From assembly GCA_021811405.1 (NCBI GenBank), contig JAJZOZ010000002.1, forward strand, positions 1 through 59,978: a stretch of DNA of 59,978 bases, written 5' to 3'. Position numbers and translations under genes: made by a program. Source of the DNA: a bacterium (GTDB taxonomy: Bacteria; Elusimicrobiota; Elusimicrobia; Elusimicrobiales; UBA9959). The notes beneath the pieces were generated by a model. The model was given only the letters and a program-made list of their open reading frames with translations. It searched no databases and had not been told where the DNA came from. This document shows positions 13,515 through 57,709 of the stretch, in pieces. Position 1 is the first letter of the stretch. Each line of letters begins with the position of its first letter.

Positions 13515-13575
13515 CGATTTATATATTTTATCATAATTAAGGGAAGGCCGGCGAAGGCCCGGCCGGCCGCCCTTC

Positions 13576-13602: not shown

Positions 13603-13608
13603 ACTGGA

Positions 13609-15096: not shown

Positions 15097-16632
15097 TCAG
15101 TTCTTGACCGCGAGAGCGTAATGCGAGCTGAGCGGCACGGCGCCGGTAAGCTCGCAGACCCCTCCATCGCAGCCCCCCTTCTCCGCCGGCACCCGTCTCC
15201 ACCCCGAAGAGGTCATATAGAACAGCCAGGGTTCCCCGTAATTGACGGCTGGCTCCAGGAAACGGAAGGTCATGGATATATCCCCGCTGACGCCGGCAAA
15301 GCCCGAGCCCAGCTGCCAGGCCGCCAGAGGAGTGAAGCCCTTGGGAAGGGACGAGCGCAGGCCCGGCGGCAGGGCGCCTTCCAGCACCTCCAGCCGCTGC
15401 TCCGCGCCTCCGCGCTGCCTGGTCCTGAATTCCATGGCGCTCAGGGCCGCCTGCCCCGAGACGGCCTTCACGGCGAACTCCGCGCTGAGATTGGAGATCT
15501 TCACCGGCCGGCGCGTGACCTCGTAGTTAAGCGTCGCCCCCTCGACCCTCTCCGCCGCGGGTTCGGCCCCGGTCGGAGGCTTGGGCGCCGCCTTTGGCGG
15601 CACCCCGAACCTGAAGGCCAGCGAGACGCGGTGGGCCGAACCCAGGTCGCCGAACGGGGAGAAAGCATAGTCGAAGCTGAACTGGTCGTAGACAAAGCCG
15701 AGGCCTGCGGAAAAACCGGACCAGGCGCCCAGTTCGTTGCCGTGCTGCCGGTAGCGGTAGCCGGTTCTGAGCGCCAGGCCGCCCGGCAACGGGTGTTCCA
15801 AACCCACCGCCAGCGACGGGTAATTGTCTATCGGCTTGACCAGGTCAGCGGAGAGCAGCAATCCCTTCTGATATATCCGGTGGGAGATGCCGGCCCTGAA
15901 GGTCAGCGGCAGGTCGAAACTCCGGGAGACGAACTTTATTCCAGGCCCGAAGTTCTGCACCGCGAAGCCGGCGGTGAACTGCCTGTCCAGCCAGTTGAAA
16001 TCGCAAAGCGCGCCGAGGTCCAGCGCGACGGTGTTGCCGGCTTCGTTGTCTATGCTCTGGCGGATGAACTTGAGGGCCGCGCCAAGGCGCAGGTCCTGGC
16101 CGTAGCTGAAGCCGTAGGCGGCGGAGAAGGCCATGTCGTAGGCGCTGAACTTCCCCTCCACCGGCGAGATCGGGACCAGCGGGTCGGCCTCGTTGAGGCC
16201 GCTGCGCCTCTCCATGTCCTTCGGCGTGTAGAAATAATCCAGGCCCAGGCCCAGCGTGCCGCGCGCCAGCGGGCCGCTCTTGAACAGACCCGTCTCCTCG
16301 CCTGGCAGCGTGAAGCCGAAATACTCCTGGCCAAGCCCCTGGAAGTAGTCGTTATGCGTGAAGACCAGCGTCTTGCCCGGGCCCAGCGCCAGGCCGGCAG
16401 GGTTCCAGTAGACGGCGTAGGCGTCGTCGGAAAGCGCGGTATAGGCCCCGGCCATAGCGGAGGGGCGGGCGCCCACCCCTATCTTCAGAAAGGCGGCGGA
16501 GGTGGTGCCGGCGGAAGGGTAGATCCTGGCCGCGCGGGAATCCGCGGCCGCTGCGCAGAGGCAGACAGCCGCCAGCAGCGCGGCGGCCGCCAGCCCCGTC
16601 CTCTTCGATTCGCTTTCTCTCGGCATATCCAT
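15097..16632 (-). CDS. PorV/PorQ-like outer-membrane beta-barrel protein with an extra C-terminal domain of about 165 aa
   Basis: 511 aa with a signal peptide. The N-terminal signature SAAFLKIGVGARPSAMAGAYTALSDDAYAVYWNPAGLA is typical of the PorV/PorQ (FadL-like) family. The barrel shows an alternating beta-strand pattern ending ..SAHRVSLAFRF, followed by an uncharacterised domain. Confidence 0.72.
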   Translation of the reverse strand: MDMPRESESKRTGLAAAALLAAVCLCAAAADSRAARIYPSAGTTSAAFLKIGVGARPSAMAGAYTALSDDAYAVYWNPAGLALGPGKTLVFTHNDYFQGLGQEYFGFTLPGEETGLFKSGPLARGTLGLGLDYFYTPKDMERRSGLNEADPLVPISPVEGKFSAYDMAFSAAYGFSYGQDLRLGAALKFIRQSIDNEAGNTVALDLGALCDFNWLDRQFTAGFAVQNFGPGIKFVSRSFDLPLTFRAGISHRIYQKGLLLSADLVKPIDNYPSLAVGLEHPLPGGLALRTGYRYRQHGNELGAWSGFSAGLGFVYDQFSFDYAFSPFGDLGSAHRVSLAFRFGVPPKAAPKPPTGAEPAAERVEGATLNYEVTRRPVKISNLSAEFAVKAVSGQAALSAMEFRTRQRGGAEQRLEVLEGALPPGLRSSLPKGFTPLAAWQLGSGFAGVSGDISMTFRFLEPAVNYGEPWLFYMTSSGWRRVPAEKGGCDGGVCELTGAVPLSSHYALAVKN

Positions 16633-16647
16633 CCCCTGGTCCTTCCC

Positions 16648-19800: not shown

Positions 19801-19843
19801 AATTAGCGTTCCTAAAAACAACAATACCGCCGCGCGGACGCGG

Positions 19844-22800: not shown

Positions 22801-25800
22801 GCGAGACGTTATTGGCCTTGTCGGTGGTCTTCACCGCGAAATAATAGGTCTTGCCCACGTCCAGGCCGTAGAGCACGCGCTGCTCCGGCTGGCCGGCCGC
22901 CGCCGGCGCCCAGGCCTGCGCGTAGGTGCTGGCCGCGCTGAACAGCGCGTCCGTGATTATCTGGAAGGTGGCCAGCTTGACCGTGTAGTAGCCGCCCGTA
23001 TTGTCCGTAACCGCGCCGTCGTCCCCGGGGGCCGTCCAGGACAGGCTCACCGAACCGCGCACCGGTCCGGGGGCCGCGGCCAGGCCCGTTATCGCGGCCG
23101 GCGGCTGCGTGTCCTTGAGTATCCGGAACGCGTCGACCAGCGTGGTGGTGCTGGAGGCGTTGTCCATGGCGCGCACGCTGATATAGTTGGTGCCGTGGCC
23201 CAGCAGCGAGAAGTTCAGCGCCCAGTTGGACGTGTAGATGGAGCCCAGAGTGCCGGAGGAAATGACGGTCCAGCCCAGCGTCTGGATGCCGGTCCGGTTG
23301 GGACCGCTGGAGGCCGAGTACTCCAGGCTGCTCAGGCCGGAGCCGCCGGTATCCGCGAAGTCCACGTCGTACACCGCGCCCTGCGCGGCGTTGCGCCAGG
23401 CCCCGTCGTAGCCGGCGGCCAGGTTATTGGTGACCGTGGGCGGCGCCGTGTCCTTCTTCACGTAGAAGGCGTCCGTGATGACGGGAGAGCTGTTGCCTGC
23501 GCTGTCGCGCGCCCTGACCGTCACGTAGCTGATCCCCTGCGGCAGCAGGTCCCACGTGCCCTGCGCGAACTGCCAGTCGGCGGTGTAGGAATCGGCGTTG
23601 ATCCCGGATACCTGGTCGGTCCAGTCCTGTACCAGCGCGCCGCCGCCGGCGGGCTGCGAGAGCACCCTGGTCTGCACCGAGGCCAGGTGCGAGCCGCCGG
23701 AATCCGTCGCGTCGATGTTATAGAAGACGCGGGAATTGCGCCAGGAATCGTCGCCGGCCTGGTTGTCTATCACGGTAGGCGGCACCGGGTCCTGCCTGTC
23801 GAACGCGATGCCGGCCGGCTCGTAGCTGAAGTCGGACACGGTGTTGGTATGCTGGAAGTTGGACGAGGCCGCGGTGCCGGCCCACGAAGTGCCGCCCCAC
23901 AGCGTGGTTTTCAGGTTCCCGGAGATATCCATCCCCAGCGCGGTGATCTTGTTGGTGTTCGGGTCCGGGTACAGCGCCAGCAGCCTGATGTCGTTGGCGA
24001 AGGTGGTATTGGTATTGGCGGTGGTCACCGACGGGCTGGCCGGCGTCCACGTGCCGCCCGACCAGGTTATGTAATCGAACTGCGTGTCGAAATTGCCGAT
24101 ATTGTCCACGGCGGCCGCCAGGAACCTGCCCGACTGGGATTCCCAGGCGGCGTCCGTGATGCGGCCGAGATTGGAGGACATGGAGGTGTCCGCCGCCGGG
24201 GAGGCGCTCCAGGCCTCGGTGCCGAGGGTGGACTGCCAGATGGAGACGTACCAGCCGGGCGACACGGTCATGATGCTGGCGCCGAGGCGGTTAGTGGTCG
24301 GGTCGGCAGCGACGCGCAGCCAGTAGACCGAAGTGGAGCCCACCGCGGGACCGGCCGGGGTGGCCGCGTCCCACGTGGACGAGGCGGAGCGCCAGATCTT
24401 GTAGGCCGTGGCGGTGCCGGCACCCCACAGCGCCACGGCGTTGCCGCTCTGGCTCTCCCAGCCGCCGTCGAAGCACTCCGTGGTCGCCATGGACGCCGCG
24501 GTGGTCAGGTTCTGCACCGAGGTCCAGGCGGAACCGGTCCAGACCGCGGCCGTGAGGCGGCCGTTGGCGTCCAGGGCCATCAGCAGCACCCTGTCGGTCC
24601 CCGGCATGGCCTTAAGCCGCACCCAGTTGACGTCGCCGGTCAGGCCGGTCAGCACGAGCGGCGCGGGCGCGCCGGCCCAGACGGAGGCGGTAGCGGACCA
24701 CACGGCGTAGGAGACGGTCCCGAGCGTACCGTTGTTATACACCGCCAGCATCCTGCCGGTCAGGCTTTCAGGGGCCAGGTCGAACTTGCGCGTGGCGGAG
24801 CCGCCGGGCGCCGGCGCGGGCGAAGGCGTGATGTCGCTCCACGCCGAGGCGAGCCCGTCCCACTTCAGCAGCTTCAGGCTGTTGTCGGAGGCCAGGAAAC
24901 CGCCTATCTTGGCGTTGGCGACTACCGGGACGGACTTCAGCACCGCCCAGCGCACCGTGGCGCCAGTGACCAGCGAACCGCCCTGCGCGCCCCAGATATC
25001 GGGCGTCCAGTTCCGGTAGACCGGGATATTGGACGCGCCGGAACCGTAAACTATCATGCCGGCGGCGGCCCCCGCCGGCGTGGCGCTGGAGACGGGAACG
25101 TTGGAGATGGGACCAACGTTGCCGGCCTCGTCCACGGCCTTTACGGCTATGGAATAAGTGGCGCCGGGAGTGAGGCCGTCCAGCACGCGGATCTCGGGCA
25201 GGCCGTAGGCCGCCGGCGACCAGGTCTGCGTATAGGTGGAGACCGCGGGCGAGGCGAAGTTGGCCCCGGTGATGAGGAACGGCGCGTAGCGCACGATGTA
25301 GGACGTCGCCGTACCGGCGTTGGCGACGCCCTTGACGCCCTCGCCCGGGGCCGTCCAGGTAAGGGATATCTGACCCTGGAAATCGGCCATTACGGCGGCC
25401 AGGTCGGCGATGGCCCCCGGCGGCGTGGTGTCCGTGCCTGCGTAGGAAGAGGTCGGGTTGCTCAGCGGCCCGGAGTTGCCGGCCTTGTCCACGGCCTCCA
25501 CGGCGAGATAGTAGGTGGCGCCGGCGGTGAAGCCGCTCAGGACCAGGCCTTCCGGCGAGCCGGCGGCCTTCGGGACCAGCGTGGAGACGTAGACGGCGGC
25601 CGCGTCGAAGTCGGCCTGGCCGGTGAAGGCGGAACCGGTCTTGTAGCGGATCATGTAATAGCTGGCGCTGCCGGTCAGGTCGCTGTCGCCGGGGGCGGTC
25701 CAGGACGCGTCGATGCCGCCCTCGCCGGCCTGGCCGGCGGAGGGAACGGCGGTCAGCGTGGTTATGGCCGACGGCGGCACCGTATCCTTGAGGATGTAGA

Positions 25801-34800: not shown

Positions 34801-37800
34801 CGGCCCAGGTGCCGGCGGAGAGCGGCCAGTCGGCGGTATAGACGTCCACCCCCGAGGTGGAGACCTGCGTGGTCCAGCCCTCGAGCAGCGCGCCGGTCTG
34901 GTTCGGGCCGGAATAGACCCTGGTCTGTATGCCGCGCAGGTGCGAGCCGCCGGTGTCGGCCGCGTCTATGTTGTAGACGCCGGTGTTCGTCCCGCGCCAG
35001 GCGTCGTCACCCGGCTGGTTGTCGGTGACGGTGGGCGGCACTATGTCGTGGCGGTCTATGGCCAGCATGGCCGGCATGTAGTTCCGGTCCGAGATGGTGG
35101 TGGTATGAGGCGTCGGGTCCAGCGTGAACACGCTGCCGCTCCAGGCGGCGCCGCGCAGGTCGCGCGAGGAGGACCAGCCGGTGAGCATCAGGTTGTTCGA
35201 CTTGGTGTCCGGCTCCAGCTCCACGCCGTAGACCACGTTGCTCCAGTTGCCCACGCTGTACGCAGCGGCCAGTGTAGTAGCCCAGCCGCCGGCCTGCGAC
35301 CAGTAGGAGTACAGCACGGTAGGCAGGGACCTGTGCGCCGAGGCCACCACGAACTTGCCGTCCCGGGTCCAGGCGGCGTCGATGGTCCTGGACTGGTTGC
35401 CGTTCCTGGCCACGCTGGCGTTCTCCGTGGCCGAAGGGAACCAGCCGGTGCCGTCCCAGATGGCGGCGTTCCAGTCGCGGACGGAATCTATGGAAGCGGC
35501 GCCTATGTAGTTGGAGTTGGGGTCCGAGGCCAGCCGCAGCCAGTTGGAGTTGCCGTCGGCTCCGATGAACGTGAACTCCGTCGTGGTGAACTGGGCCCAG
35601 GAAACGCCGTTCCACAGCCAGGTGATCGCCTTGCCGGTGACGGCCGTGCCTCCGTAGCTCACGAGGCAGTGCCCCGACAGGCTCTCCCAGGCCACGTCGA
35701 AATTCTGGTAGGTGGTAAGGCCGAGGTTGTTCACTATAGTGGTCACATCGGACCAGAGCGAGCCGGTCCAGCGGGCGGCGGTGAGCTGATTGGAGCTGAG
35801 GTTGGAGAATGCGGCCATCAGCTCGCTGGACCCAGGCCTGGCCTCCAGCCGCACCCAGACCGCGGCGGCGGCGGGATCTCCGGCGGCGAGGGTCTGCGCC
35901 CCGGTCCAGGAGGAGCCGTCGTAGATATTGTAATAGAGAGTGCCGACCGCGGCACCCTGGTACAGCACCACGGCCCTGCCCGTGTTCTGCTCATAGGCTA
36001 TGTCGAAGCCTCTGTAGGCGGAATCAGTGGCCCCTATGGTGGTGGTGCTCCATTCGTTGGTCCATTGGCCGTTGAGGCCGTTATACCTCTGTATCTGCAG
36101 CGTGCCGTCCGAGAACAGTATGCCGGCCAGCTTCTCGTTCCTGAGCGGAGAGGCCCGGACTATCACGTGCCTGGCCACGGCGCCGGCGGCCGCGTTGGCG
36201 GCGAGGCTGGTCTGCACGCCCGCGAAAGAGGGCGGGGTCCACTTGCGTACGTACGGCGTGTTGCCCGTGCCGTTGCCGAACATGAACATGCCGGGAGTCC
36301 CCTCTCCCACCTTGGCAGGCGCCGACGGACTGTTGGACAGCGGAGAGGTATTGGCGACTTCGTCCACCGCCTTTACGGCCCAGTAGTAGGTGACCCCCGG
36401 TGTGAGATTGTCTATCCCCTGCGCCTCCGGGACCCCGGGATACTGCGGCACCCAGGCCTGCGCGTAGATATTGGCCCCGTCCCACAGCAGGGCCGACGTG
36501 ACGGCCTGGTCGGTGCGGTAGCGCACCTGGTAGGCCGTCGCGGTGCCTAGGGAGACCCCGTTGTCCCCCACCGCCGTCCAGGAGAGCGCTATCTGGCCGT
36601 CGAAACCTCCCTGCTGCGCCGCGAGGTCCGTTATGGCGCCTGGAGGCGTCGTGTCCGGGCCGGCGGACGCGGTGGCGGTGTTGGAGACGGCCGAGATATT
36701 ACCCGCCCTGTCCACCGATTTCACGGCGATATGATAGGCGGTGTTCGGAGCCAGGCCGGTAAGGTTGTAGCTCTCCGGCGAGCCGGGACCGACCGGCGTC
36801 CAGGACTGCGTGTAGGTGTCGGCCGTGTCGAAATTGCCGGCGGCGATGACGATATAGGAGGAGAACTTCACGAGGTACGAGCTCACGGCGGCGCCGCCGT
36901 CGTCCGGCGCCGTCCAGGACAGCGCTATGACCCCTTCGGCGCCCGTGACGCCGGCCAGCGCGCCTATGGCCGGCGCCGGGGCGGTATCCTTGCGCACGTA
37001 AAAGACGTCGGCCAGGGAGGAAGTGGAACCGGCCATGTCGAAAGCGCGCACCGAGATGTAGCTGGTGCCCGGGGCCAGCAGGTCCCATTGCGCCTGGGGG
37101 ATGGACCAGTCCGCGGTGTAGGACGCGGCGTTGATGCCGGCCACGGCGTCGGTCCAGTCGAAGAGCAGCGTACCGGTCTGGCCGGCCCCCGTCATGGCCT
37201 TGAGCTGGAACTTCGCCGCCAGGGACTTATCGTCGGCGAAATCCACGTTGTAGAGGCCGGAGTTGGAGGCGCGCCAGACGTCGTCGCCGGCCTGGTTGTC
37301 GGTTATCACGGGACCGGAGGTATCCTTCCTGACGTAGAAGGCGTCGGAAAGCGCGGAACCGTTGCCCGCGCTGTCCAGCGCGCGCACCGAGACCTGGTTG
37401 GCACCCTCGCGCATCGCCGCGAAGACGGCGGGAGGCAGCGCCCAGTTCGCCGTGTAGGAAGCGCCGGAGAGCGCGGAGACCGGCGTCCAGTCGGCCAGCA
37501 CCGTGCCGCTCTGGTTCAGGCCGGTGGTCACCTTCACCTCGAAGGAGGCCAGGCCGGAGAGCTGGTCCGCGAAGTCCACGTCGTAGACGCCGGTATTGGC
37601 GGAGCGCCAGGCGTCGTCGCCGGCCTGGTTGCCGGAGATGGCGGGGCCGGCGACGTCCTTGCGCACGTAGAAGACGTCGGCCAGCGTAGTAGTGGAGCCG
37701 GCGTTGTCCATGACCCTTACGGATACGTAGCTGGTGCCGGACTGGAGCAGCGTGAAGGCGCCCGCCGAGAGCTGCCAGTCCGCGGTATAGGAAGTCAGCC

Positions 37801-48052: not shown

Positions 48053-48063
48053 ACCCGTTAAAT

Positions 48064-48474
48064 TCAGTCCTCCGACGTTCCCTCGCGCGCGCGCCTTTCC
48101 TCTTCCCGCATCATCTCCACTATGTCCTGCACCGTAAGCCCCACCAGCCAGTGGTTGACCTCGGCGCGCAGGGTCTCGTACAGCTTGTTGGAAACCTGCT
48201 CCCGCTCCGCTTTCGGCGCCCCGTTGAAAGTGAAGGCCTCCATCAGCTGCCAGACGCTGATGCCGTCGAGGTCCTTGCGCAGGCGGTAACCTTTGCCCTT
48301 CTGGGACTCGACCATGCCGGCGTGCACCAGCGCCTGCAGCACCTTGTTGCAGTACGGCGCGGGCAGGCCCTGGAAGCGGGCAATATCGGCCACCTGGTTC
48401 CACTGCCCGCCGTTGTTCTGCCCCAGGTAATGCAGGCAGGACAGTCCGTAGGCTAAAGTGCGGTTCATCCTCAT
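48064..48474 (-). CDS. Rrf2-family transcriptional regulator (no Fe-S Cys triad)
   Basis: 136 aa. MRMNRTLAYGLSCLHYLGQ...IARFQGLPAPYCNKVLQALVHAGMVESQKGKGYRL is a typical Rrf2 winged helix. No three-Cys cluster-ligand motif is seen around residues 90-105. GGAG lies 7 nt upstream of ATG 48474. The stop is 11 nt upstream of the giant gene start. Confidence 0.9.
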   Translation of the reverse strand: MRMNRTLAYGLSCLHYLGQNNGGQWNQVADIARFQGLPAPYCNKVLQALVHAGMVESQKGKGYRLRKDLDGISVWQLMEAFTFNGAPKAEREQVSNKLYETLRAEVNHWLVGLTVQDIVEMMREEERRAREGTSED

Positions 48475-48540
48475 AAGAAAGCTCCGGCGCCTTACAAGCT
48501 GTATCGCCGCTACGCGGCTGTTTTATTCCAGCGACCAACA

Positions 48541-48567
48541 GTCATCGGATATTTTCTATCCGATGAC
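48541..48567. promoter_or_regulatory. Perfect 11-5-11 palindrome, candidate Rrf2 operator
   Basis: GTCATCGGATA-TTTTC-TATCCGATGAC, with the two arms exactly reverse-complementary. It lies in the leader between the promoter-like element and the Rrf2 start. Confidence 0.4.
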
Positions 48568-48571
48568 GACC

Positions 48572-48606
48572 AAAAAAAAAGGACAGCCGCGACCGACACT
48601 CTGTCC
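48572..48606 (-). terminator. Intrinsic-terminator-like hairpin plus U9
   Basis: The minus strand reads GGACAG-AGUGUCGGUCGCGG-CUGUCC followed by nine U (A9 on the plus strand, 48572..48580). It lies 61 nt downstream of the radical SAM stop (48667). Confidence 0.45.
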
Positions 48607-48646
48607 ATTGATATCAATAGTATAGCAGAGGCCGGTCTTGTGTCAA
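48607..48646 (-). promoter_or_regulatory. Near-consensus sigma70 promoter plus a 12-bp palindrome at the predicted start site
   Basis: The minus strand reads TTGACA (48646..48641), a 16-nt spacer, then TATACT (48624..48619). ATTGATATCAAT (48618..48607, a perfect palindrome) follows immediately. Confidence 0.45.
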
Positions 48647-48666
48647 GGCCCAGAACAGGTTACACA

Positions 48667-49701
48667 TTATACACCGGCCCCGCGCCGCATAATAGCCGCC
48701 ATTTCGCAGGCCGCGCTATTAGGGGCAAGGACGTCGTCCTCCTCCAGCAGGCTTATGCCCGGACAGAGGCTGCAATATTCCCTGTCGCGGCATTTGACGC
48801 AGCTTTTCTGGTCGGCCGCGGAAAGCCGGCGCCATTTCTTCAGCCAGGGGGATCCGCGCCAGATGGAGGAGAAGCGGCTCCGCGCGAGGTTCCCCAGCCT
48901 TACCGGCAGCTGCAGACAGGGATAAAGCCAGCCGGAAGGGTCCACCGCGCAGACGTTGCGGCCCGCGCCGCAGATAAAATCGTCGGCTCCGGGCCCCGCC
49001 GCGGCCTCCGCGGTGGACGGGGGAGGAGGGACCTTACTGACCGCCCGCGCCAGGGCAGGGCCGGAGAGCCGGAAGGCGGAGGCGCCGGGGTGGCCGTCGT
49101 TCGCCGGGGCTATCACCGGGTCGAACGAGACAGCGAAGCCTTCCGCCGAGGAGAGGCGGGTCAGCCAGCCGGCCTCCTCCGCGTTCAGGGTCATCAGCGG
49201 CGACTTCATCCTGACCCGCACCCCGGCTTTTCGCAGCAGCCTGGCCGCGGCCAGACTGCGGCGGAAAGAGCCCTTCAGCCCGGTCACGCGGTCATGCAAC
49301 TCCGGGCGGCCATAGAAACTTATCCCGAAGGAGGATATCCCGGCTTCCTTAAGCTCACCGGCCAGGGCCGGGGTCAGGCCCAGGCCGGTGGAGAACACGC
49401 TGACGTCGAACCTGAGGGAGGCGGCATGGCGGCAGAGTTCCGCCAGGTCCTCGCGCAGCAGCGGCTCCCCCCCGGTGAATGTCAGATAAAGGGCTCCGGC
49501 CCGGGCCAGGTCCGAAATGATGCTCTTCCATACCGCCGCGGACAGCTCCCGCGGCGCCCTGGCGCGGCCGCGCGTTTCCGGCAGGTAGCAATGGCGGCAG
49601 GAAAGCGGACAGCGGCGGGTGAGCTCCGCCGTAGCCGAGACGGGGATATTGCGCTCCAGCGTCAGGCGGTTAAGCCTGGCGGATGGCAGGCGGTCAGCCA
49701 T
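48667..49701 (-). CDS. Radical SAM/SPASM-domain peptide-modifying enzyme
   Basis: 344 aa. CPLSCRHC (CX3CX2C), the SPASM segment CGAGRNVCAVDPSGWLYPC, and terminal CVKCRDREYCSLC. Confidence 0.9.
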   Translation of the reverse strand: MADRLPSARLNRLTLERNIPVSATAELTRRCPLSCRHCYLPETRGRARAPRELSAAVWKSIISDLARAGALYLTFTGGEPLLREDLAELCRHAASLRFDVSVFSTGLGLTPALAGELKEAGISSFGISFYGRPELHDRVTGLKGSFRRSLAAARLLRKAGVRVRMKSPLMTLNAEEAGWLTRLSSAEGFAVSFDPVIAPANDGHPGASAFRLSGPALARAVSKVPPPPSTAEAAAGPGADDFICGAGRNVCAVDPSGWLYPCLQLPVRLGNLARSRFSSIWRGSPWLKKWRRLSAADQKSCVKCRDREYCSLCPGISLLEEDDVLAPNSAACEMAAIMRRGAGV

Positions 49702-50023
49702 GGGAAAGAAAAAGGCGGGAGAGAACGCGCCTGGTCAGGGAATAGGCAAGGCCGGCCCGGCCGCGCGAGAGCGGGCCGCCGGAGACGGCCGTGCCGCTGA
49801 TATCACTGAACGGGACGAAATGCCTGTCCAGGCGGCCGGCGTCGTCGGCCAGCCACGCCCCTTTTTCAGTGACGGACAGCACCCGGTGCAGCAATCTGGC
49901 GCCCTGGAACAGGTAAACGGCGCAGTCTCCGGGGCCCGGCCTGTCGTCGCTCAGCAGCACCAGCTCGCCGGGCCTGAATACCGGCAGCATGCTGGAGCCT
50001 TCCAGGCTGAAGCAGGCAGGCAT
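49694..50023 (-). CDS. Mini S24/S26-family peptidase-like protein (109 aa)
   Basis: Track ORF trimmed to ATG 50023 (MPACFSLEGSSMLPVFRPGELVLL...). GSSMLP resembles the catalytic Ser box and LLHRVL sits where S26 has (K/H)RV. The stop overlaps the radical SAM start by 8 nt. The start lies 2 nt after the precursor stop. Confidence 0.6.
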   Translation of the reverse strand: MPACFSLEGSSMLPVFRPGELVLLSDDRPGPGDCAVYLFQGARLLHRVLSVTEKGAWLADDAGRLDRHFVPFSDISGTAVSGGPLSRGRAGLAYSLTRRVLSRLFLSHG

Positions 50024-50025
50024 CC

Positions 50026-50160
50026 TCAGGAGAACTTCTTGAGGGTCTTGCAGGCCAGCTGGCTGATGGGGCCGCTCGTGCATTTGCCGCAGGCCAGCGC
50101 GGCCTTCTCGAAGACCTTCTCGGTCTTGATGGAGGGCTTTTCGTATTTTTTCTTTTTCAT
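50026..50160 (-). CDS. Unannotated 44-aa candidate RiPP precursor peptide
   Basis: My translation is MKKKKYEKPSIKTEKVFEKAALACGKCTSGPISQLACKTLKKFS*. AGGA lies about 8 nt upstream. It is below the size cut-off of the ORF track. It is flanked by PqqD (19 nt upstream) and the peptidase-like gene (2 nt downstream). Confidence 0.6.
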   Translation of the reverse strand: MKKKKYEKPSIKTEKVFEKAALACGKCTSGPISQLACKTLKKFS

Positions 50161-50179
50161 ATGTGGTCCTGAAATATGG

Positions 50180-50452
50180 TCACGCGGTCTTTTTTAAGAG
50201 GCCGCAGTCTATCAATTCCTTTATAAAGTCCCGGGAGTCCGCGCGGGCCGCGTCCCGGCCCACCTCGAACTTCCCGGTAAGGGCCGCCACGATGCCGTCC
50301 TCGTCCTGGCCGGCCGCCAGGCACTCCCAGATGACGGCCGCCGTGCCGTTCAGCTCGTGCAGCCGGGCGGAGGCGGCATCCACTACGAACAGCTCCTCGC
50401 CCATGCGCCTGAAGGCCAGGTCCTTCCGCATATTTACCGCTTTGTCCGTCAT
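50180..50452 (-). CDS. PqqD-family peptide chaperone (RiPP recognition element)
   Basis: 90 aa with PqqD-like LFVVDAASARLHELNGTAAVIWECL. The start overlaps the kinase stop (ATGA). Confidence 0.85.
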   Translation of the reverse strand: MTDKAVNMRKDLAFRRMGEELFVVDAASARLHELNGTAAVIWECLAAGQDEDGIVAALTGKFEVGRDAARADSRDFIKELIDCGLLKKTA

Positions 50453-51252
50453 ATCAGCTCCAGGAAAGCGGCGTCCCGCTTCGCGAATTCCAGACGTTTC
50501 GGCCTTGCGGCCTCCAGCAGGCCGCAGGCATTACTCAGCGCCAGGGACGCGGCTTCCCCCCCTTTTTCGAAGTTCACCAGACAGCGCAGCAGCAGCTTCA
50601 GGGCCTCGCCGCCGCCGCAACTATGCAGCGAGTGGCTGCGCGCCTTGGCCAGGATGTAGACCCCCCCCAGAGGCCAGGCGCCGGGCCTGCCGTCGGCCCG
50701 CATCTCGCCCCAGAAAGGCGAGCCGTGTACCGCCCAGCCGCGCTTGCCGGGCCGCAGCAGGTTTATCTCGTCGCTTATCACTTCGGCCCCGCCGGCGGCA
50801 GCGGCCAGCCTGGCGAGGGTGGACTTGCCTGCCCCGGACTTGCCGAGGAACACGTACGCCCGGCCGTTCTTCAGCAGGCCGGCCGAATGCAGCATCAGGC
50901 CTCCGGAACGGAGCAGCAGCGAGCTCAGCAGAGAGCGCAGGAAAGCGTCCAGGCACTGGGCGTCGGACGCCGCGGCCAGGCGGCCTTTCCCGGTCCGCAG
51001 GTCCAGCCCGGCGCGGAAATCCCCGCGCTTCAGCGTCAGGGTGGTCCCCGCAAGGGCCACCGCGGGCCTGAACGGCAGGTCTCTCCTCTGGACGGACGAG
51101 ACCTCGAACTCGCGGCAGGCCCCGACGGGGCGGGAGAAGGCGCCGTAGCGGCGCCTCAGCGACGAAACGATGCCTTCCTCGTCAGGCCCAAAAGAGAATC
51201 CCAGACCGGCGATCCTCAGCCCCAGACGGGGCGTCACAGCCCCGGGGGCCAT
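50449..51252 (-). CDS. HprK-related (HPr kinase C-terminal-domain-like) kinase
   Basis: 267 aa. LMLHSAGLLKNGRAYVFLGKSGAGKSTLARL is the P-loop in an HprK_C-like context. There is no N-terminal HprK domain. The start overlaps the end of the upstream PilX-like gene by 19 nt. Confidence 0.78.
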   Translation of the reverse strand: MAPGAVTPRLGLRIAGLGFSFGPDEEGIVSSLRRRYGAFSRPVGACREFEVSSVQRRDLPFRPAVALAGTTLTLKRGDFRAGLDLRTGKGRLAAASDAQCLDAFLRSLLSSLLLRSGGLMLHSAGLLKNGRAYVFLGKSGAGKSTLARLAAAAGGAEVISDEINLLRPGKRGWAVHGSPFWGEMRADGRPGAWPLGGVYILAKARSHSLHSCGGGEALKLLLRCLVNFEKGGEAASLALSNACGLLEAARPKRLEFAKRDAAFLELI

Positions 51253-52499
51253 TCGCCCTTGACCTCGTACCAGGTCCCCTTCACTATGGTCACCGGGCTG
51301 GTATACAGCCTTATGTTGGACGCGATGTCGGGATCGTAGTAGATAAGGAAGTTGGAAGTGTCCGTAGTGCTGTCGTTGGCCGACACGACCACGCCATGGA
51401 AGATGCCGTTGCCGCCGCCGGACAGCTCCATGTTGCCGCCGGCGTAAAGCATGCCGTGCGTCAGGACCCCGGTAAGAGGGTAGGTCTTGCCCGTCGCGAC
51501 GTAGTTGGAACTGACCGCGTCGGCGTAAGTGGCTGGGCCGGCCGGGTCGAAGATCTTGTAATGCGCCCAGTTGGCACCGTACTCCTTCCAGGCGTAAGGG
51601 GGGAGCGCGGCGTTGTAGCTGCCGTCGGGGGCGTTGGCGGAACCGCCGTTGCCGGCAAAGGTGACGTTGCCGAGCGCGATCACGTTGCCGGTGATATGGT
51701 TGCCGCCGGCGCCGGATTTAAAGATGGCGTTGCCGGTGATATAATAGGTCTTTCCGCTCTTATCATGGCATCCCATGAAGGTCCTGTCGCCTACGGTGTA
51801 ATAGTTGCCGCCGCAGGGCGAGGCGCCGCTGCCCGTGGCCGAACTCAGGTAGAAGCCGAAATTGATGGTCGGCGCGGAGGGGACGGGGTAGTAAGACCAC
51901 CAGTAAACATCGTCGGTGGAGGCGGTGGACGAGCCGCCGTCCTGCGTGGTGACGTGGCCGGCGCTGTAGAACCTCGGGAAGGTGCGCCCCGTGGCGATGA
52001 TGCTGCCGTTGGAGATCACCGGCCCCCATTCCACGTGCGGGTTGCCGCCGCCGTTGGTGAGGACCTTCTCCGACCTTATGGCGAACTTCACCCCGGTGTT
52101 GGTGTTGACCAGGTACATGCGGATGCGGCGCACCTGCCTGCTGCCGAGGTCCTTGCCGGCGGCCTCGACTATCCTCGCGTCCGGGTTGGCGGGGTCCGAG
52201 CTGATCCTTATCGTGTAGTAGCCCCCGCCTATGTCGTCGTAGACCTGGTCGAAATTATAGCCCGCTATCGTGCCGGTGGAGGTGGCGTTCCACATGTCCA
52301 CGCTCTCCAGTATCTTCCAATACGCCCGGTCCGCGCCGCCCTCCGCCAGATGGAAAGCCGTTGTGGACTGTTTCTCCTTGACCGACCATTTGCCCTCGTT
52401 CCGCGTGAACAGGTTCATGACCGGGAACATCAGCATCAGGAAGAGCAGGATGCTGATGACCATGGTTATGGCCATCTGACCGTGTCTGCTGTTCTTCAT
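51234..52499 (-). CDS. PilX-like pilus assembly / minor pilin-like protein, paralogue 2
   Basis: Track ORF trimmed to the in-frame ATG at 52499 (MKNSRHGQMAITMVISILLFLMLMF..). It shows the PilX_N-like pattern: a G-Q/M-A hydrophobic helix followed by STTAFHLAEGGADRAYW. The C-terminal part is Gly/Asn-rich and beta-helix-like. Confidence 0.68.
   Translation of the reverse strand: MKNSRHGQMAITMVISILLFLMLMFPVMNLFTRNEGKWSVKEKQSTTAFHLAEGGADRAYWKILESVDMWNATSTGTIAGYNFDQVYDDIGGGYYTIRISSDPANPDARIVEAAGKDLGSRQVRRIRMYLVNTNTGVKFAIRSEKVLTNGGGNPHVEWGPVISNGSIIATGRTFPRFYSAGHVTTQDGGSSTASTDDVYWWSYYPVPSAPTINFGFYLSSATGSGASPCGGNYYTVGDRTFMGCHDKSGKTYYITGNAIFKSGAGGNHITGNVIALGNVTFAGNGGSANAPDGSYNAALPPYAWKEYGANWAHYKIFDPAGPATYADAVSSNYVATGKTYPLTGVLTHGMLYAGGNMELSGGGNGIFHGVVVSANDSTTDTSNFLIYYDPDIASNIRLYTSPVTIVKGTWYEVKGEWPPGL
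52288..52478 (-). repeat. Near-identical 5' segment shared by the two PilX-like genes (copy in paralogue 2)
   Basis: A 113-nt exact match (52288..52400 equals 53630..53742). About 95% identity continues to 52478/53820. Elsewhere the paralogues are much more diverged. Confidence 0.8.
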
Positions 52500-52572
52500 A
52501 TCATGTCCAAAGGCCCGCCTGTCAGGCGGTCCTTCCGGGAAATCCCCGTGCCGGTCGTCATGCTCCGGATGG

Positions 52573-53853
52573 TCAAGGCAGCCCCGCCGGCCACTCGGCC
52601 TTGATCTCATACCAGTCCTTCCTGGAGATCGTCAGATGTCCCGCCGACAGTTTAACCGCTTCGGCGACCAGGGAGTCGTAGTAAACGGTATAATTGGAGG
52701 TTTCCGTCTCGTATTCGCCGGCGGTCATCACCAGCCCGTGAAAGACGCCGTTACCGCCGCCCTGCAGCGACATCTCCCCCCTGGCGTAGAGGAAGCCGTG
52801 CACCAGAACGCCGCTCAGAGGATAGGTCTTGGCCGTTGCGACGTAGTTGGAGCTGACCGCGTCGGCCCAGGTGGCCGGCGCGGCCGGGTCGAACGTCTTA
52901 TAGTGCGCCCAGTTGGCCCCGTACTCCCTCCAGGCATAAGGAGGAATATTCGCGCTGTAGCTGCCGTCCGCGCCGTTGGAGGAGCCGCCGTTCCCGGAAA
53001 ATTCCACGTTGCCGAGCGTCATCACGGTGCCGGTTATATGGTTGCCGCCGCCGCCGGCCTTGAAGATGACGTTGCCGGTGACGTAATACGTCTTCCCGCT
53101 CTTGTCATGGCAGCCCATGAAAGTCCTGTTCCCCACGGTATAATAGTTCCCTCCGCACGGGGAAGCGCCGCTAGCCTGGGCGGAGGATAAGTAAAAACTG
53201 AAGCTGACGGCCGGGGCGGGGGGCACCGGATAGAAAGACCACCAGTACACGTCGTCGGTGCCCGCGACGGCCGAACCGCCGTCCTGTGGCGTGACGTGGC
53301 CGGCGCTGTAATACCTGGGGAAAGTGCGCCCCGACGCCTGTATCTCCTTGTAAGATACCACCGGTCCCCACTCCACCTGGGAATTTCCCCCTCCCAGTTC
53401 GGCCTCGTCCTCGGTCCTCACTGCGGAATCCACGCCGGTGTCGGTGTTCTCCAGGTACATGCGGACGGCGCGCAGCTGGGAACCGGTGCCGTCCCTGCCC
53501 ACCGCTTCGACTATCCTGCGGTCCGGATTGACCGGGTCGGAACTGATCTTCACGGCGTAAGAGCCGCCGCCTATGTCTTCGTAGACCTGGTCGAAATTAT
53601 AGCCGGGTATGGTGCCGGTGGAGGTGATGTTCCACATGTCCACGCTCTCCAGTATCTTCCAATACGCCCGGTCCGCGCCGCCCTCCGCCAGATGGAAAGC
53701 CGTTGTGGACTGTTTCTCCTTGACCGACCATTTGCCCTCGTTCTGCACGAACAGGTTCATGACAGGGAACATCAGCATCAGGAACAGCAGGATGCTGATG
53801 ACCATGCTTATGGCCATCTGTCCCGCCCTGCGGTTCCGCGGATATTTGGTCAT
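52573..53853 (-). CDS. PilX-like pilus assembly / minor pilin-like protein, paralogue 1
   Basis: 426 aa. MTKYPRNRRAGQMAISMVISILLFLMLMFPVMNLF...STTAFHLAEGGADRAYW, with the same architecture as paralogue 2. Confidence 0.68.
   Translation of the reverse strand: MTKYPRNRRAGQMAISMVISILLFLMLMFPVMNLFVQNEGKWSVKEKQSTTAFHLAEGGADRAYWKILESVDMWNITSTGTIPGYNFDQVYEDIGGGSYAVKISSDPVNPDRRIVEAVGRDGTGSQLRAVRMYLENTDTGVDSAVRTEDEAELGGGNSQVEWGPVVSYKEIQASGRTFPRYYSAGHVTPQDGGSAVAGTDDVYWWSFYPVPPAPAVSFSFYLSSAQASGASPCGGNYYTVGNRTFMGCHDKSGKTYYVTGNVIFKAGGGGNHITGTVMTLGNVEFSGNGGSSNGADGSYSANIPPYAWREYGANWAHYKTFDPAAPATWADAVSSNYVATAKTYPLSGVLVHGFLYARGEMSLQGGGNGVFHGLVMTAGEYETETSNYTVYYDSLVAEAVKLSAGHLTISRKDWYEIKAEWPAGLP
53630..53820 (-). 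repeat. Near-identical 5' segment shared by the two PilX-like genes (copy in paralogue 1)
   Basis: See 52288..52478. The offset is 1,342 bp. Confidence 0.8.
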
Positions 53854-53856
53854 AGG

Positions 53857-54363: not shown

Positions 54364-54370
54364 ATTCCGG

Positions 54371-56938
54371 TCACCAGTTGAAATTCACCGTCACGGTCTG
54401 ATTGGGATTTACGGCCACCCCGAGGGATTGCTTGCGCGTGACGACGGGCACGGAGTTGCTCCACGTGGTGTACCACGCGTACACGTTATAGGAATAGCCT
54501 CCCTTCACCGAGATGCTGAAATTGCCCAGCGCGTTGCTGGAATCGGCGTAATAAACAGCCGTGCCGGAGCGCAGCGCGGAGGTTATGTCAGGGGGGGACG
54601 CTCCGGCGGCCAGCGTGGCCGTGGTCACGTATACCAGCACGCCCGTGGTTATGGCTTCGCTGCTCTTCGTTACCTGGCCCTCGACGGCGCCGAAGGCGTT
54701 GGCGATCGTGAACGTGGAGGAGAAGGTGGTGACGCCCGCGGTCACCGTGACGGTCTTGGAGGAGGGCGAGCAGCCCTCGCCGATTTCCAGCTGCGGCTGC
54801 ACGATGTAGGTGCCCGTGGAGATGCCCGTGCCCGAGATGGTGAAATAGCCGTCGTCGTCGCTGACGCCGCTGCCCTGCTCTACCCCGCCCTTGAGGCCCG
54901 CCACCGGTATGCCCGGCAGAGGGTCCACGCCGTTGGTCGTTATCTTGCCGCGGATGCGGCCTCCCTGGTAAAGCGCGAAATCCACGCCCTGGCGCGCTTC
55001 GCCAACACCTACGTTTATATCTGCGGAGGACAGCTCCACGTAACTGGGGCTGTAGCTCTGGTAATTGGCCCGTATGGAGACCACGCCGGCCTCCACCGGC
55101 AGCGTGTAGCGGCCGCTGGCGTTGGTGTAGACCGGAGAGGCGCCCGGCGCGTACATCTTTATGCTGGACAGGTTGTTGCCGAGCACGTCGGTCACTCTGC
55201 CGGTGATGTAACCGTATATGGTGGGGGAGGACATCACGTTGTAGCCGGACCAGGAGCTGTAGTTGCTGGTCGTGCCGCCGTAATAGGCGACGCTGGAGAA
55301 AGAGAGCCCGCTGGACATATAAACGGTCCAGCTGCCGGTAGAGACGGGGGAAACGTTATAGTAGCCCATCCAGGTGGCGGCAACTGGACTGGAGAGGCCG
55401 TCGTCCACGAAGACGATGGCGCCCTCGCCCGTGCTGCCGGTCACGCAGGTCTGCGTGTCGGTGCTGGTCCTGGGCGGCGCATAAGTCACCGTGGTGCACA
55501 TGACGTCGTAGTAGTTGTAGTTGGAATCGAAACAGCTGGCCTGGCCCGCGAGGACCTGGCCGAACCAGGTGTTGCGCAGGAAGGCCCTGTTGGGCTTCAT
55601 TCCGTGATCGATATTCTTCCAGCCCTGCCAGTAGAAGACCGGCCACATCTCGTACGAATCCGGGTATTGGTACGTTAATGCCACCGGATCGAAGTTCATC
55701 CAGCCCACCGTGTCGTACACCCTGGAGGTGACGTTGTTGCGCAGGGAGATGTACGCCGCTATATCGTCCACGGTTACAACGTCGTCCTGGTGGAGCCAGT
55801 CCCCGTTGGAGCTGTAGACGGCGTCGGCCTGCACGGTCACGCCGGCGGCCGTTACGGTCCCCGTGTTGGCGAACAGGTAATAATGATTGGGGACCAGCGT
55901 CGTGGTGCGGTAATCTATATCCGGGGTCACCACCGCACCGGTCTTTTCCTTGTAGGAGAAGTTGATCACCTCGTTGGCGCCGATGCCCAGGCCGGTGGCC
56001 ATGGTCCAGGTCCAGGTGGTGGGATTGTACACCTCTATCCATTCCGTGTCTCCGGTGGCGGTATTCGTGCTGCCTACCACGCCGCTTATCATCAGATGGT
56101 CCCCGGGAAGCATGGCGTAGCCGGAGATGCTGCCGGTGGACATCTGGGTGAGCGTGAAATCCTTGCCGGAAACAGTGGCGCCGTCGCCCACTCCGAACGA
56201 CGGCAGCACGGACGGGAAATAGAAGTTCTTGGTGGCCAGCAGGGTATAGGTGCCGGCGACTATGCTGAAGGAATAGTTCCCGGAAGCGTCCGACTCGCCG
56301 TAATAGGAAGGGTCCTCCTGTGCGCGGATTATCACGTCGGACACGTTGCCGCCGCCGGACTTATAGACGTGGCCGCTGATGGTGGCGCTCCTGTTGACCC
56401 GGGCCGGGTTCTCGCGGAGGTTGCGCACCTCCAGCTTGCGCCACTCGCCTCGCTCGTACCAGCAGACGTAGACCTTTATCTCCTTGAGCCCAGGGTCGGG
56501 GGAGTTCCAGCTCAGGTAGCTGAGGTTGCCGGACGGGTCCTCGGTCACCTTGCGGATGTATACCCGCCTGAGGAAGTTTATACCGCCGACGTTGACGGTC
56601 TCCTCGCCGTTGGGAGCCACGTCGTAGATCATCTCTCCGGCGGCGTAGTTGGGGTCGGAAGCGGAAGCCGTGGTGACCAGGACCCTGTAGTAGGACTTGT
56701 TCTTCAGGTACTCGATGCGCTCCTGGGCTATGTTGTTGGCCAGCGAGCGGGTCTTGGCCGACTGTATGCCCACGTTGAAGAACTTGAAAGCCCCCACCAT
56801 GCCCAGCACGCCTATGGTCATGATGACCATCGCGACCATCAGCTCGGTCAGCGTCATGCCGGGGCGCGGCCGCCCGCCGCGGGCCGCTGAGGCCCGCGGT
56901 TCCGCGGCTGGCTGTCCCGACATGGCTGCTGTACGCAT
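54371..56938 (-). CDS. Large (855 aa) PilV-like prepilin fused to CarboxypepD_reg-like and lamin-tail-like domains
   Basis: The N-terminus ..RPRPG/MTLTELMVAMVIMTIGVLG is a prepilin signal. ISGHVYKSGGGNVSDVIIRAQ..DASGNYSFSIVAGTYTLLA and several later repeats resemble carboxypeptidase-regulatory-like folds. GDTEWIEVYNPTTWTWTM...RVYDTVGW resembles an LTD. An alternative start is ATG 56923. Confidence 0.78.
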   Translation of the reverse strand: MRTAAMSGQPAAEPRASAARGGRPRPGMTLTELMVAMVIMTIGVLGMVGAFKFFNVGIQSAKTRSLANNIAQERIEYLKNKSYYRVLVTTASASDPNYAAGEMIYDVAPNGEETVNVGGINFLRRVYIRKVTEDPSGNLSYLSWNSPDPGLKEIKVYVCWYERGEWRKLEVRNLRENPARVNRSATISGHVYKSGGGNVSDVIIRAQEDPSYYGESDASGNYSFSIVAGTYTLLATKNFYFPSVLPSFGVGDGATVSGKDFTLTQMSTGSISGYAMLPGDHLMISGVVGSTNTATGDTEWIEVYNPTTWTWTMATGLGIGANEVINFSYKEKTGAVVTPDIDYRTTTLVPNHYYLFANTGTVTAAGVTVQADAVYSSNGDWLHQDDVVTVDDIAAYISLRNNVTSRVYDTVGWMNFDPVALTYQYPDSYEMWPVFYWQGWKNIDHGMKPNRAFLRNTWFGQVLAGQASCFDSNYNYYDVMCTTVTYAPPRTSTDTQTCVTGSTGEGAIVFVDDGLSSPVAATWMGYYNVSPVSTGSWTVYMSSGLSFSSVAYYGGTTSNYSSWSGYNVMSSPTIYGYITGRVTDVLGNNLSSIKMYAPGASPVYTNASGRYTLPVEAGVVSIRANYQSYSPSYVELSSADINVGVGEARQGVDFALYQGGRIRGKITTNGVDPLPGIPVAGLKGGVEQGSGVSDDDGYFTISGTGISTGTYIVQPQLEIGEGCSPSSKTVTVTAGVTTFSSTFTIANAFGAVEGQVTKSSEAITTGVLVYVTTATLAAGASPPDITSALRSGTAVYYADSSNALGNFSISVKGGYSYNVYAWYTTWSNSVPVVTRKQSLGVAVNPNQTVTVNFNW

Positions 56939-57687: not shown

Positions 57688-57709
57688 AAGACCTCCGTGG
57701 TATTCATGT

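Follow-up and report, generated by a model that had tools for sequence, protein, structure and literature searches.

Does a long run of closely packed genes on one strand encode a single surface machine, or do separate systems lie side by side in it? This question is raised by positions 15097-56938 of an Elusimicrobiota sequence (GenBank assembly GCA_021811405.1, contig JAJZOZ010000002.1), of which positions 1 to 59,978 of the forward strand were examined; this whole stretch of 59,978 nucleotides (nt) is called the window below. The locus encodes PilV-, PilW- and PilX-like minor pilins, a cassette for a ribosomally synthesised and post-translationally modified peptide (RiPP), an Rrf2-family regulator, a giant secreted protein of 9,402 amino acids (aa), a secreted propeller protein with a C-terminal sorting domain (CTD) and a PorV-like outer-membrane barrel (Table 1). 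An earlier reading made from the letters alone (the sequence-only reading) had described a single co-directional locus of ~42 kb, in which the giant protein takes the place of the pilus protein PilY1. The layout and spacings that it reported are real; related loci, however, resolved the locus into two independently conserved modules and not one indivisible system. The modular anatomy and the genetic linkage were observed directly. We consider it moderately probable that two separable modules stand side by side in one Elusimicrobiota order, the peptide cassette being dedicated to the giant protein and the propeller end of the giant being held by the CTD protein and the PorV-like barrel.

The upstream module, consisting of a family-2 glycosyltransferase (GT2), a 234-aa secreted protein and the PilV/W/X pilins, is a common stand-alone minor-pilin operon. 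The PilX-like family, defined by alignment A4, occurs behind PilV and PilW in 80 metagenome loci found by a scan with this alignment, and nearly all of them carry PilV, PilW and PilX together. Sequence of at least 2 kb downstream was available for 47 loci. Twenty of the 47 run on into the kinase, PqqD, precursor, peptidase and radical SAM genes of the cassette, with Rrf2 next in 14 of the 15 that are long enough; in ten such Rrf2 loci that were inspected, a long open frame follows to the end of the locus, directly or within ~2 kb. In locus L133 only ~1.3 kb separate the aligned part of PilX from Rrf2 downstream, which leaves no room for a full cassette. The block is missing from the other 27 loci, and nine of these, on inspection, lead into housekeeping or unrelated genes (tmk, holB, metG), with no PilY1-like gene behind the PilVWX trio in any of the nine.

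The downstream module is a self-contained block of ~37 kb (13576-51252) with the RiPP cassette, a promoter, Rrf2, the giant, the CTD protein, the PorV-like barrel and an ABC-2 exporter. Two loci (L126, L136) carry GT2, the 234-aa protein and PilVWX and then directly HPF, HprK, RapZ and phosphotransferase system (PTS) genes, which are the flanks of the window minus ~37 kb. The stretch from the RiPP genes to the ABC genes is therefore gained or lost as one discrete unit. The same PilVWX-HPF junction is present in L130, on a shorter contig that reaches up to HPF. No ABC-2 exporter was detected in these three block-less loci. ABC-2 homologues lie inside the cassette in L020, L021, L031 and L042 and adjoin it in L001, L002, L055 and L057, and the exporter is probably part of the RiPP-giant block, judging by this gene content.

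A second scan, anchored on the N-terminal region of the giant and restricted to one genome per species, gave 51 loci, against which all window proteins were compared by tblastn; 36 have enough upstream sequence to be evaluated. The giant is immediately preceded by two or more RiPP genes in 27 of the 36, among them loci with N-terminal identities of 29-40% and metagenome-assembled genomes labelled Ignavibacteria, Firestonebacteria and "Deltaproteobacteria". The small peptidase of the cassette was found in 18 of the 36 loci and Rrf2 in 16, at least two pilin genes in only four, and one pilin gene in two more. A motif search of the distant giant loci detected no prepilin gene within 10 kb upstream. 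The internal gene order of the cassette varies between near and distant relatives, and the cassette stays beside the giant. In P0005/L003 (L003/L038), L032 and L041 an in-frame fusion joins the peptidase to the N-terminus of the giant without an intervening stop codon, ahead of the hydrophobic segment of the giant; in four more loci the peptidase lies within ~150 nt of the start of the giant. The regulator, the peptide cassette and the outer-membrane pair had been assigned to the giant from the window alone, and this assignment holds, as they are conserved beside the giant in relatives.

The complete order of GT2, 234-aa protein, PilV, PilW, PilX, kinase, PqqD, precursor, peptidase, radical SAM enzyme, Rrf2 and giant recurs in many Elusimicrobiales contigs, in which PilV is only 30-60% identical. 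The sequence-only reading was to be given up if its gene order were conserved in no related genome, and on this point it survives; the three-part order of pilin, RiPP and giant genes is, however, conserved only within Elusimicrobiales. Behind Rrf2, the N-terminal domain of the giant is replaced by unrelated ones in L065, L069, L096 and L098, in L066, L102, L115 and L137, and in L077. At least three unrelated N-terminal domains (e.g. "ATTVYLGDT...", "GSFSGPT...") were seen at this position, and the distal end seems to be exchanged in cassette fashion. In L036, GT2 and the 234-aa protein are followed by the kinase, with no pilins.

As had been claimed, every open reading frame between 56938 and 15097 lies on the minus strand; a recount gave 13 genes rather than 14. 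The gaps of 7 nt between PilV and PilW, 3 nt between PilW and PilX and 11 nt between Rrf2 and the giant are as reported, as are the 19-nt overlap of the second PilX copy with the kinase, the ATGA overlap of the kinase with PqqD, the 192-nt spacer between the radical SAM gene and Rrf2, the 43 nt between the giant and the propeller-CTD gene (ATG at 19800) and the 15 nt between the latter and PorV. The co-directional run reaches further upstream, to 58945, by two genes (234-aa protein, GT2). Strand is no evidence for a unit, because the minus strand carries nearly all the remaining genes of the window too (HPF, HprK, RapZ, PTS genes, PtsI, LepA, LepB, MTHFR and the RNase P RNA).

The pilin and RiPP genes probably form one transcription unit, because they overlap and no promoter is predicted between them, and the upstream module is probably co-transcribed with the RiPP genes in the Elusimicrobiales lineage. 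The 192-nt spacer holds a conserved promoter, hairpin and palindrome, so that probably at least two transcription units are present, Rrf2, the giant, the CTD protein and PorV probably having their own. The TTGACA-16-TATACT sequence is the best match to a sigma-70-like promoter in 16 kb, and its -35 and -10 elements (CCTTGAC-N17-CTGCTATAcT) are invariant in the aligned spacers of eight relatives. Equivalent hairpins with different stem sequences, each in front of a T run, were found in 7-8 of these 8 relatives when their spacers were folded singly. The hairpin with its T9 run could be a terminator of the upstream operon, an attenuator of the downstream one, or both. The palindrome GTCATCGGATA-N5-TATCCGATGAC is unique in the window and is kept in the eight relatives, with symmetric changes at 5 pair positions; the RNAalifold consensus of the spacer recovered this palindrome and not the terminator-like hairpin, owing to insertions and deletions. 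A second perfect palindrome of 12 bp (ATTGATATCAAT, 48607-48618, minus strand) immediately follows the -10 element, where transcription is expected to start; most of the eight relatives have it unchanged or nearly unchanged, and it could be another operator. Homologues of the Rrf2 protein with 78-94% identity stand in front of giants in relatives. All equivalog scores of this protein are under their cut-offs, leaving membership of the Rrf2 superfamily only, and compared with iron-sulphur sensors of the IscR/NsrR/RirA type it has Cys13 and Cys42 only and lacks the C-terminal Cys triad.

The giant protein begins with a Sec signal peptide and a conserved all-beta N-terminal region of ~790 aa, followed by ~53 repeats of ~110 aa. 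It further contains two inserts of ~770 aa, two lamin-tail domains (LTDs), fn3/Ig repeats and a C-terminal 8-bladed propeller of the BamB/YxaL type. Its homologues range from ~1,000 to 9,390 aa and have the same two ends; the N-terminal region is 92% identical to DAIENX010000064 and the C-terminal region 97% identical to P0010. Homologues of the first 800 residues are found almost only in Elusimicrobiota. The N-terminal region was modelled as stacked beta-sandwiches (mean predicted local distance difference test score, pLDDT, 76.6), and a fold search with it gave generic fn3, ephrin-receptor and phage tail-tip matches only, with query-normalised template modelling (TM) scores below 0.2. Two insert domains of ~500 residues, each behind an fn3 pair, lie at 34853-36385 and ~23500-25100 (minus strand; giant residues ~3890-4400 and ~7640-8150); for the first of them phmmer found no PDB match, and Pfam recognised only its fn3 flank. 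The reported domains were recovered by profile searches (N_methyl in the 855-aa and 168-aa pilins, PqqD, Radical_SAM with SPASM, Rrf2 and a PQQ-like propeller at the end of the giant). A lamin-tail domain had been proposed for both the giant and the 855-aa pilin: the giant has two, but the match in the pilin is sub-threshold (17.9 bits vs a cut-off of 34.3).

The propeller of the giant had been likened to that of PilY1/PilC. No PilY1/PilC Pfam domain was detected at E<=0.01 in either half of the giant, the sole propeller match being Beta-prop_ACSF4/PQQ-like, and phmmer against the PDB at E<=10 returned PQQ-repeat and BamB chains and no PilY1. The propeller model (block-mean pLDDT mostly 75-90) was compared with the PDB by Foldseek, which placed YxaL and BamB at the top (target-normalised TM ~0.7-0.75), with 8-bladed designer propellers next; none of the 50 matches listed is PilY1. 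The likeness is thus to BamB and YxaL. In a sequence and domain scan the giant showed no signal of its own for a type I, type V or type IX secretion system (T1SS, T5SS, T9SS). As regards RTX-type adhesins of the T1SS, it has no RTX or retention-module match, and the adjoining ABC genes are of the ABC-2 type, without membrane fusion protein or TolC genes. In the 43-nt gap behind its stop codon, a GC hairpin (CCGCG-TCCG-CGCGG) with a T-rich stretch (19830-19843, minus strand) could be a partial terminator that sets the transcript ratio of giant to partner.

The cassette has the features of a radical-SAM/SPASM RiPP pathway, namely a CxxxCxxC core with SPASM, a PqqD-type recognition element and a short precursor with conserved Cys. 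Homologues of the precursor occur in 33 loci, and a separate search gave 80 clusters. Among close relatives, Cys24, Cys27, Cys37, the Tyr-x-Lys-Pro motif and the terminal Ser are invariant (alignment A5); 31 more divergent precursors all keep the Tyr, the Pro, the first and second Cys and the Ser at the end, and at least 80% of them also have the third Cys. A profile of the precursor retrieves 422 clusters at 50% identity, and among these are many 2-Cys forms that end in ...RKxS; the 2-Cys forms still end in Ser, and one in Thr. Homologues of the kinase-like protein carry the Pfam domain ScmC (PF27840). The best NCBIfam match of the PqqD protein is the lasso PqqD chaperone (44.8 bits, under the cut-off of 70), and the radical SAM/SPASM enzyme reaches no NCBIfam equivalog. 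From these parts, the product would most likely be a thioether-bridged peptide, possibly phosphorylated and exported by the ABC-2 pump.

Homologues of the small Ser/His-type peptidase match Peptidase_S24 (weakly), and from its motifs it is probably the leader peptidase of the cassette. A canonical LepB is encoded in the window; the small peptidase is therefore an extra, specialised enzyme. A role as signal peptidase specific for the giant was judged less likely, for it is also present in a related cassette that is free of a giant, its fused copies precede the membrane segment, and the normal LepB is at hand.

The partners downstream of the giant combine a type A CTD on the presumed cargo with a barrel of the PorV/PorQ family. 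The sorting domain of the 1,050-aa protein scores above threshold with both Por_Secre_tail (PF18962; 37.2 bits vs a cut-off of 27) and TIGR04183 (32.7 vs 23), and its PQQ/BamB-type propeller is related to that of the giant (~25% identity). Behind the giant, the CTD protein is found in L017, L037, L040 and L048, where the N-terminal region of the giant is 34-60% identical to that in the window, and also in L055-L057, contigs found through the C-terminal region of the giant. Matches of the CTD protein by tblastn inside the giants of other loci were not counted; where inspected (L017, L037, L048) they are fn3 cross-matches. A PorV-like gene lies behind the CTD protein in L037 and L055-L057, and the other CTD-bearing loci end before that point. 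In L056 an IS200-type (Y1_Tnp) transposase gene lies between the CTD and PorV-like genes (12375-13040). For the 511-aa barrel itself, the PorV and PorQ equivalog models stay under their cut-offs.

In the pilin module, the 855-aa and 168-aa proteins have class III signal peptides with a Gly cleavage site, Glu5 and a hydrophobic helix, as seen in the motifs G/MTLTE and G/YTLME and in N_methyl matches above threshold. The PilV, GspI and ComGE models match the 855-aa pilin at its N-terminus only, and homologues of this pilin contain CarboxypepD_reg domains. The two PilX-like copies are 73% identical; both have a hydrophobic segment, lack Glu5 and match no family, copy 1 having no Pfam or NCBIfam match. 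A single copy is present in at least some relatives (L005, L007, L039, L058). GT2 homologues of 52-76% identity hold the same position in L006, L036, L039, L060, L062, L065 and L066. The 234-aa protein, which has no Pfam or NCBIfam match, directly precedes the kinase in L036 and L058. No prepilin peptidase, ATPase, platform or secretin gene was found within the 60-kb window.

We infer the following course of events. The precursor would be bound through its lasso-like YxxPxI leader and cross-linked at its three Cys by the radical SAM enzyme, and its invariant C-terminal Ser may be phosphorylated by the kinase; the small peptidase would trim the peptide and the ABC-2 pump export it. The giant would form a long surface fibre of variable length, with its C-terminal propeller held at the outer membrane via the CTD protein and the PorV-like barrel, and the peptide would be its dedicated accessory (ligand, maturation factor or signal) and not a free antibiotic. 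A more specific version is put forward only tentatively: the ribosomal peptide, made by a radical SAM enzyme together with a lasso-like set of leader, recognition element and kinase, would be the dedicated partner of the giant fibre, either as a ligand, maturation or anchoring factor or as a signal at the Rrf2-controlled promoter, with the fibre tethered by a stand-alone CTD/PorV pair and wired transcriptionally to a minor-pilin tip operon in one order.

Several observations weigh against a dedicated cassette and a CTD/PorV-held giant. The cassette is absent from 9 of the 36 giant loci, some of which have only an NTP_transf_5 gene or Rrf2; thus, in L001, L002, L017 and L018 the giant is preceded only by the NTP_transf_5 gene, with Rrf2 also present in L002. 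In L058 the cassette stands beside the PilVWX trio with no giant adjacent. A distant 2-Cys cassette (L146, peat metagenome 3300014153), with precursor, S24 peptidase, ScmC, PqqD, radical SAM and NTP_transf_5 genes and adjoining polysaccharide genes, has no giant nearby, and therefore the cassette can work without one. No T9SS core genes (SprA/Sov, PorK-N, PorU) were found in the window. The hairpin with its T run sits downstream of the predicted promoter, an awkward place for a simple two-operon reading, and the overlap of pilin and kinase genes, together with the order-wide conservation of pilin, RiPP and giant genes, leaves room for a role of the pilins. Such a role could be that of a pseudopilus tip for export, as proposed for the giant genes of Omnitrophota, or could act through the peptide.

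The NTP_transf_5 gene, which also ends the L146 cassette, may be a remnant or an alternative partner. In L058/L059 (GCA_040753515.1) the cassette is convergent with PilV-PilW-PilX, a 368-aa protein lies behind the radical SAM gene, and past the pilins come a 748-aa protein and a TolC-like gene.

How far do other explanations account for the locus? According to the sequence-only reading, the giant replaces PilY1 and docks by its propeller on the PilV/W/X tip, the whole 42 kb being one filament-associated adhesin system. The resemblance to the PilY1/PilC and PilV-W-X genes of type IVa pili lies in the PilV-, PilW- and PilX-like genes and in a large propeller-ended protein further downstream, and the preservation of the pilin-RiPP-Rrf2-giant order across many Elusimicrobiales contigs despite the divergence of PilV, the overlap of PilX with the kinase gene and the cassette kept beside the pilin trio in L058 even after rearrangement all speak for a tie between pilins and giant. 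The giant, however, fails as a PilY1 equivalent by family, by fold and by wide synteny: it has no PilY1/PilC family match, and the neighbours of its 8-bladed propeller in sequence and fold are PQQ-repeat proteins, YxaL and BamB. What follows pilX is the kinase, and five RiPP genes, the conserved promoter and the regulator keep the giant apart from pilX. In the majority of RiPP-giant loci the 10 kb upstream are free of prepilin genes, and some loci whose synteny is otherwise preserved lack the block. PilVWX trios are mostly found on their own, without a large gene behind pilX, and neither FimU, PilE nor assembly genes are nearby. We regard a PilY1 replacement as improbable. Somewhat less so, although still unlikely, is that the trio forms a pseudopilus tip resembling GspI/J/K, in a type II-like machine by which the giant would cross the outer membrane. 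Such a machine would suit a giant with a Sec signal peptide and none of the three secretion signals mentioned above, as well as the weak N-terminal GspI and GspJ matches of the pilins and a PilX-like protein that lacks Glu5, as GspK does. Moreover, the passages searched of a preprint on Omnitrophota state that giant genes are generally preceded there by loci resembling type II secretion systems (T2SS) or type IV pili (T4P), with pilin-like genes (West-Roberts et al., bioRxiv 10.1101/2023.11.21.568195). The window, however, has no secretin, ATPase or platform gene, RiPP-giant blocks of most lineages have no pilin genes nearby, and the trio is widespread without any giant.

A further explanation concerns the cassette: it may make an independent antimicrobial or signal peptide and be a mere neighbour of the giant operon by descent, with no shared function. 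The occurrence of the cassette without a giant in L146 (as a 2-Cys variant) and L058, the size of the precursor family (422 clusters) and the separate promoter predicted for Rrf2 and the giant are all consistent with this. We nevertheless consider it unlikely, since the adjacency of cassette and giant survives a fall of N-terminal identity to 29-40%, changes of the internal gene order and even replacement of the N-terminal domain of the giant, since peptidase and giant are fused in three genomes, and since cassette and giant are gained or lost together in the syntenic comparisons.

Table 1. Features of the locus and its surroundings in the window, listed along the minus-strand run from GT2 downwards, then flanking features (positions in the window)
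Feature	Position	Strand	Remarks
Family-2 glycosyltransferase (GT2)	57710..58945	-	Pfam Glyco_tranf_2_3, 95.6 bits; upstream end of run
234-aa secreted protein, Lys/Ala/Pro/Glu-rich tail	57013..57717	-	kept between GT2 and PilV
PilV-like minor pilin, 855 aa, large beta-rich body	54371..56938	-	N_methyl 24.9 bits (cut-off 21.2)
PilW/GspJ-like minor pilin, 168 aa	53857..54363	-	N_methyl 25.8 bits, IV_pilin_GFxxxE 26.6 bits
PilX-like copy 1, 426 aa	52573..53853	-	hydrophobic N-terminus without Glu5
PilX-like copy 2, tandem paralogue	51234..52610	-	likely start ATG at 52499; stop overlaps kinase start by 19 nt
ScmC/HprK-related P-loop kinase-like protein	50449..51252	-	weak matches to HprK_rel_A, ScmC, HprK_rel_B
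PqqD-family peptide-binding protein (RiPP recognition element)	50180..50452	-	PqqD 54.8 bits
RiPP precursor, 44 aa, MKKKKYEKPSIKTEKVFEKAALACGKCTSGPISQLACKTLKKFS	50026..50160	-	YxxPxI leader motif, three Cys, C-terminal Ser
Small S24/S26-like peptidase (Ser/His type)	49694..50023	-	GSSMLP and HR motifs; weak sigpep_I_arch match
Radical SAM/SPASM peptide maturase	48667..49701	-	Radical_SAM 81.6 bits, SPASM 30.6 bits; CPLSCRHC motif
Sigma-70-type promoter (predicted), TTGACA-16-TATACT, upstream TG	48619..48646	-	in front of Rrf2; 11/12 positions
Hairpin followed by T9 run	48572..48606	-	-12 kcal/mol, z = -2.2
Perfect 11-5-11 palindrome GTCATCGGATA-N5-TATCCGATGAC	48541..48567	-	candidate Rrf2 operator
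Rrf2-family regulator	48064..48474	-	Rrf2 67.4 bits; without three-Cys Fe-S motif
Giant secreted protein, 9,402 aa	19844..48052	-	signal peptide, repeats, two LTDs, C-terminal propeller
Secreted propeller-CTD protein, 1,050 aa	16648..19800	-	PQQ_2 148 bits; fn3 domains; T9SS type A sorting domain
PorV/PorQ-family outer-membrane beta-barrel, 511 aa	15097..16632	-	NF033709 164.8 bits vs cut-off 90
ABC-2 exporter pair (ATPase, permease)	13576..15089	+	ABC_tran, ABC2_membrane; convergent with PorV
LepB signal peptidase I, canonical	3643-4641	-	Peptidase_S26, 167.5 bits
RNase P RNA, bacterial class A	1627-1995	-	187.5 bits
Gly/Ser-rich protein, ubiquilin/STI1-like domain	59030-59974	+	divergent from GT2

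The GC content of the window is 61-70%, and its nearest relatives are metagenome-assembled Elusimicrobiota. The Gly/Ser-rich ubiquilin/STI1-like family also borders the locus in L060 and L062. An open reading frame at 12962-13540 (plus strand) was first read as MntP; it is the antisense of the HPF gene, so matches to it mark HPF.

How do the parts of the block compare with known systems? The nearest parallels of the cassette are clusters for phosphorylated lasso peptides (paeninodin type; BsfK/BsfB1), which have in common with it a YxxPxL-type leader, a PqqD-like B1-type protein, an HprK-related kinase, a terminal Ser and a nearby ABC exporter. In these pathways the leader motif is used by PqqD-like B1 proteins, and HprK-like kinases, which need the B1 protein, phosphorylate lasso precursors, the C-terminal Ser included (PMC10368454). 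Unlike them, the cassette uses a radical-SAM/SPASM enzyme on a core with three invariant Cys; it contains neither an Asn-synthetase-like cyclase nor a B2 protease, and its core ACGKCTSGPISQLACKTLKKFS lacks Asp and Glu. SynChlorMet (Scm), GeoRSP and SCIFF/ranthipeptide systems share an ScmC-type kinase-like protein, a PqqD-like protein and a radical SAM/SPASM enzyme that acts on a short Cys-containing peptide. The cassette differs from them in having one radical SAM enzyme and not two, an added S24-like peptidase and linkage to a giant surface protein, and all its NCBIfam scores are far under the equivalog cut-offs (for SynChlorMet, ScmC 29.4 vs 125, ScmD 17.5 vs 100, ScmE 92.3 vs 400 and ScmF 63 vs 400 bits).

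For the outer-membrane pair, the above-threshold type A sorting domain and the PorV/PorQ barrel next to it are as in T9SS cargo systems; in contrast to these, the phylum is not known for T9SS, the window holds none of the core genes, the giant has no CTD and the pair is dedicated to one locus. In Bacillus, tapA-sipW-tasA is a fibre operon with its own signal peptidase, and the small Ser/His-type signal-peptidase-like gene embedded beside a surface-fibre gene recalls this arrangement. Here, however, the peptidase belongs to a RiPP cassette that is also found without the fibre gene, and its fused copy is N-terminal to the membrane segment of the giant. With the Omnitrophota giants the locus shares a very large secreted repeat protein, an uncultured diderm phylum and pilin-like genes upstream; in comparison with the loci described in the passages searched of bioRxiv 10.1101/2023.11.21.568195, it has three minor pilins and no secretion machine, and its conserved partners are the RiPP cassette and the CTD/PorV pair, of which those passages were found to make no mention.

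Literature searches on Elusimicrobia with pili, or on giant proteins together with radical SAM enzymes, found no description of the locus, and searches for SynChlorMet, ScmC and GeoRSP gave unrelated acronyms only. The association of RiPP cassette, giant and CTD/PorV pair appears to be undescribed, although it is built from known kinds of parts.

RiPP cassettes are commonly taken for makers of antibiotics or signals, and giant adhesins for passengers of the T1SS, T5SS or T9SS. The phylum-wide association of a cassette with giant genes, including fusion in three genomes, suggests a peptide in the service of a surface machine. With its lasso-type leader, three Cys and invariant terminal Ser, the precursor offers chemistry a predictable target, being a short peptide that could be expressed, and the CTD/PorV pair beside a CTD-less giant offers a testable route by which proteins of 1,000-9,400 residues may be held on the outer membrane of Elusimicrobiota. 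For the scanning of genomes, the locus illustrates that tightly packed co-directional genes can still be two independently conserved modules. If the proposed reading is true, it would reveal a novel role for a RiPP and a novel means of mounting very large adhesins, in a phylum outside the known range of the T9SS.

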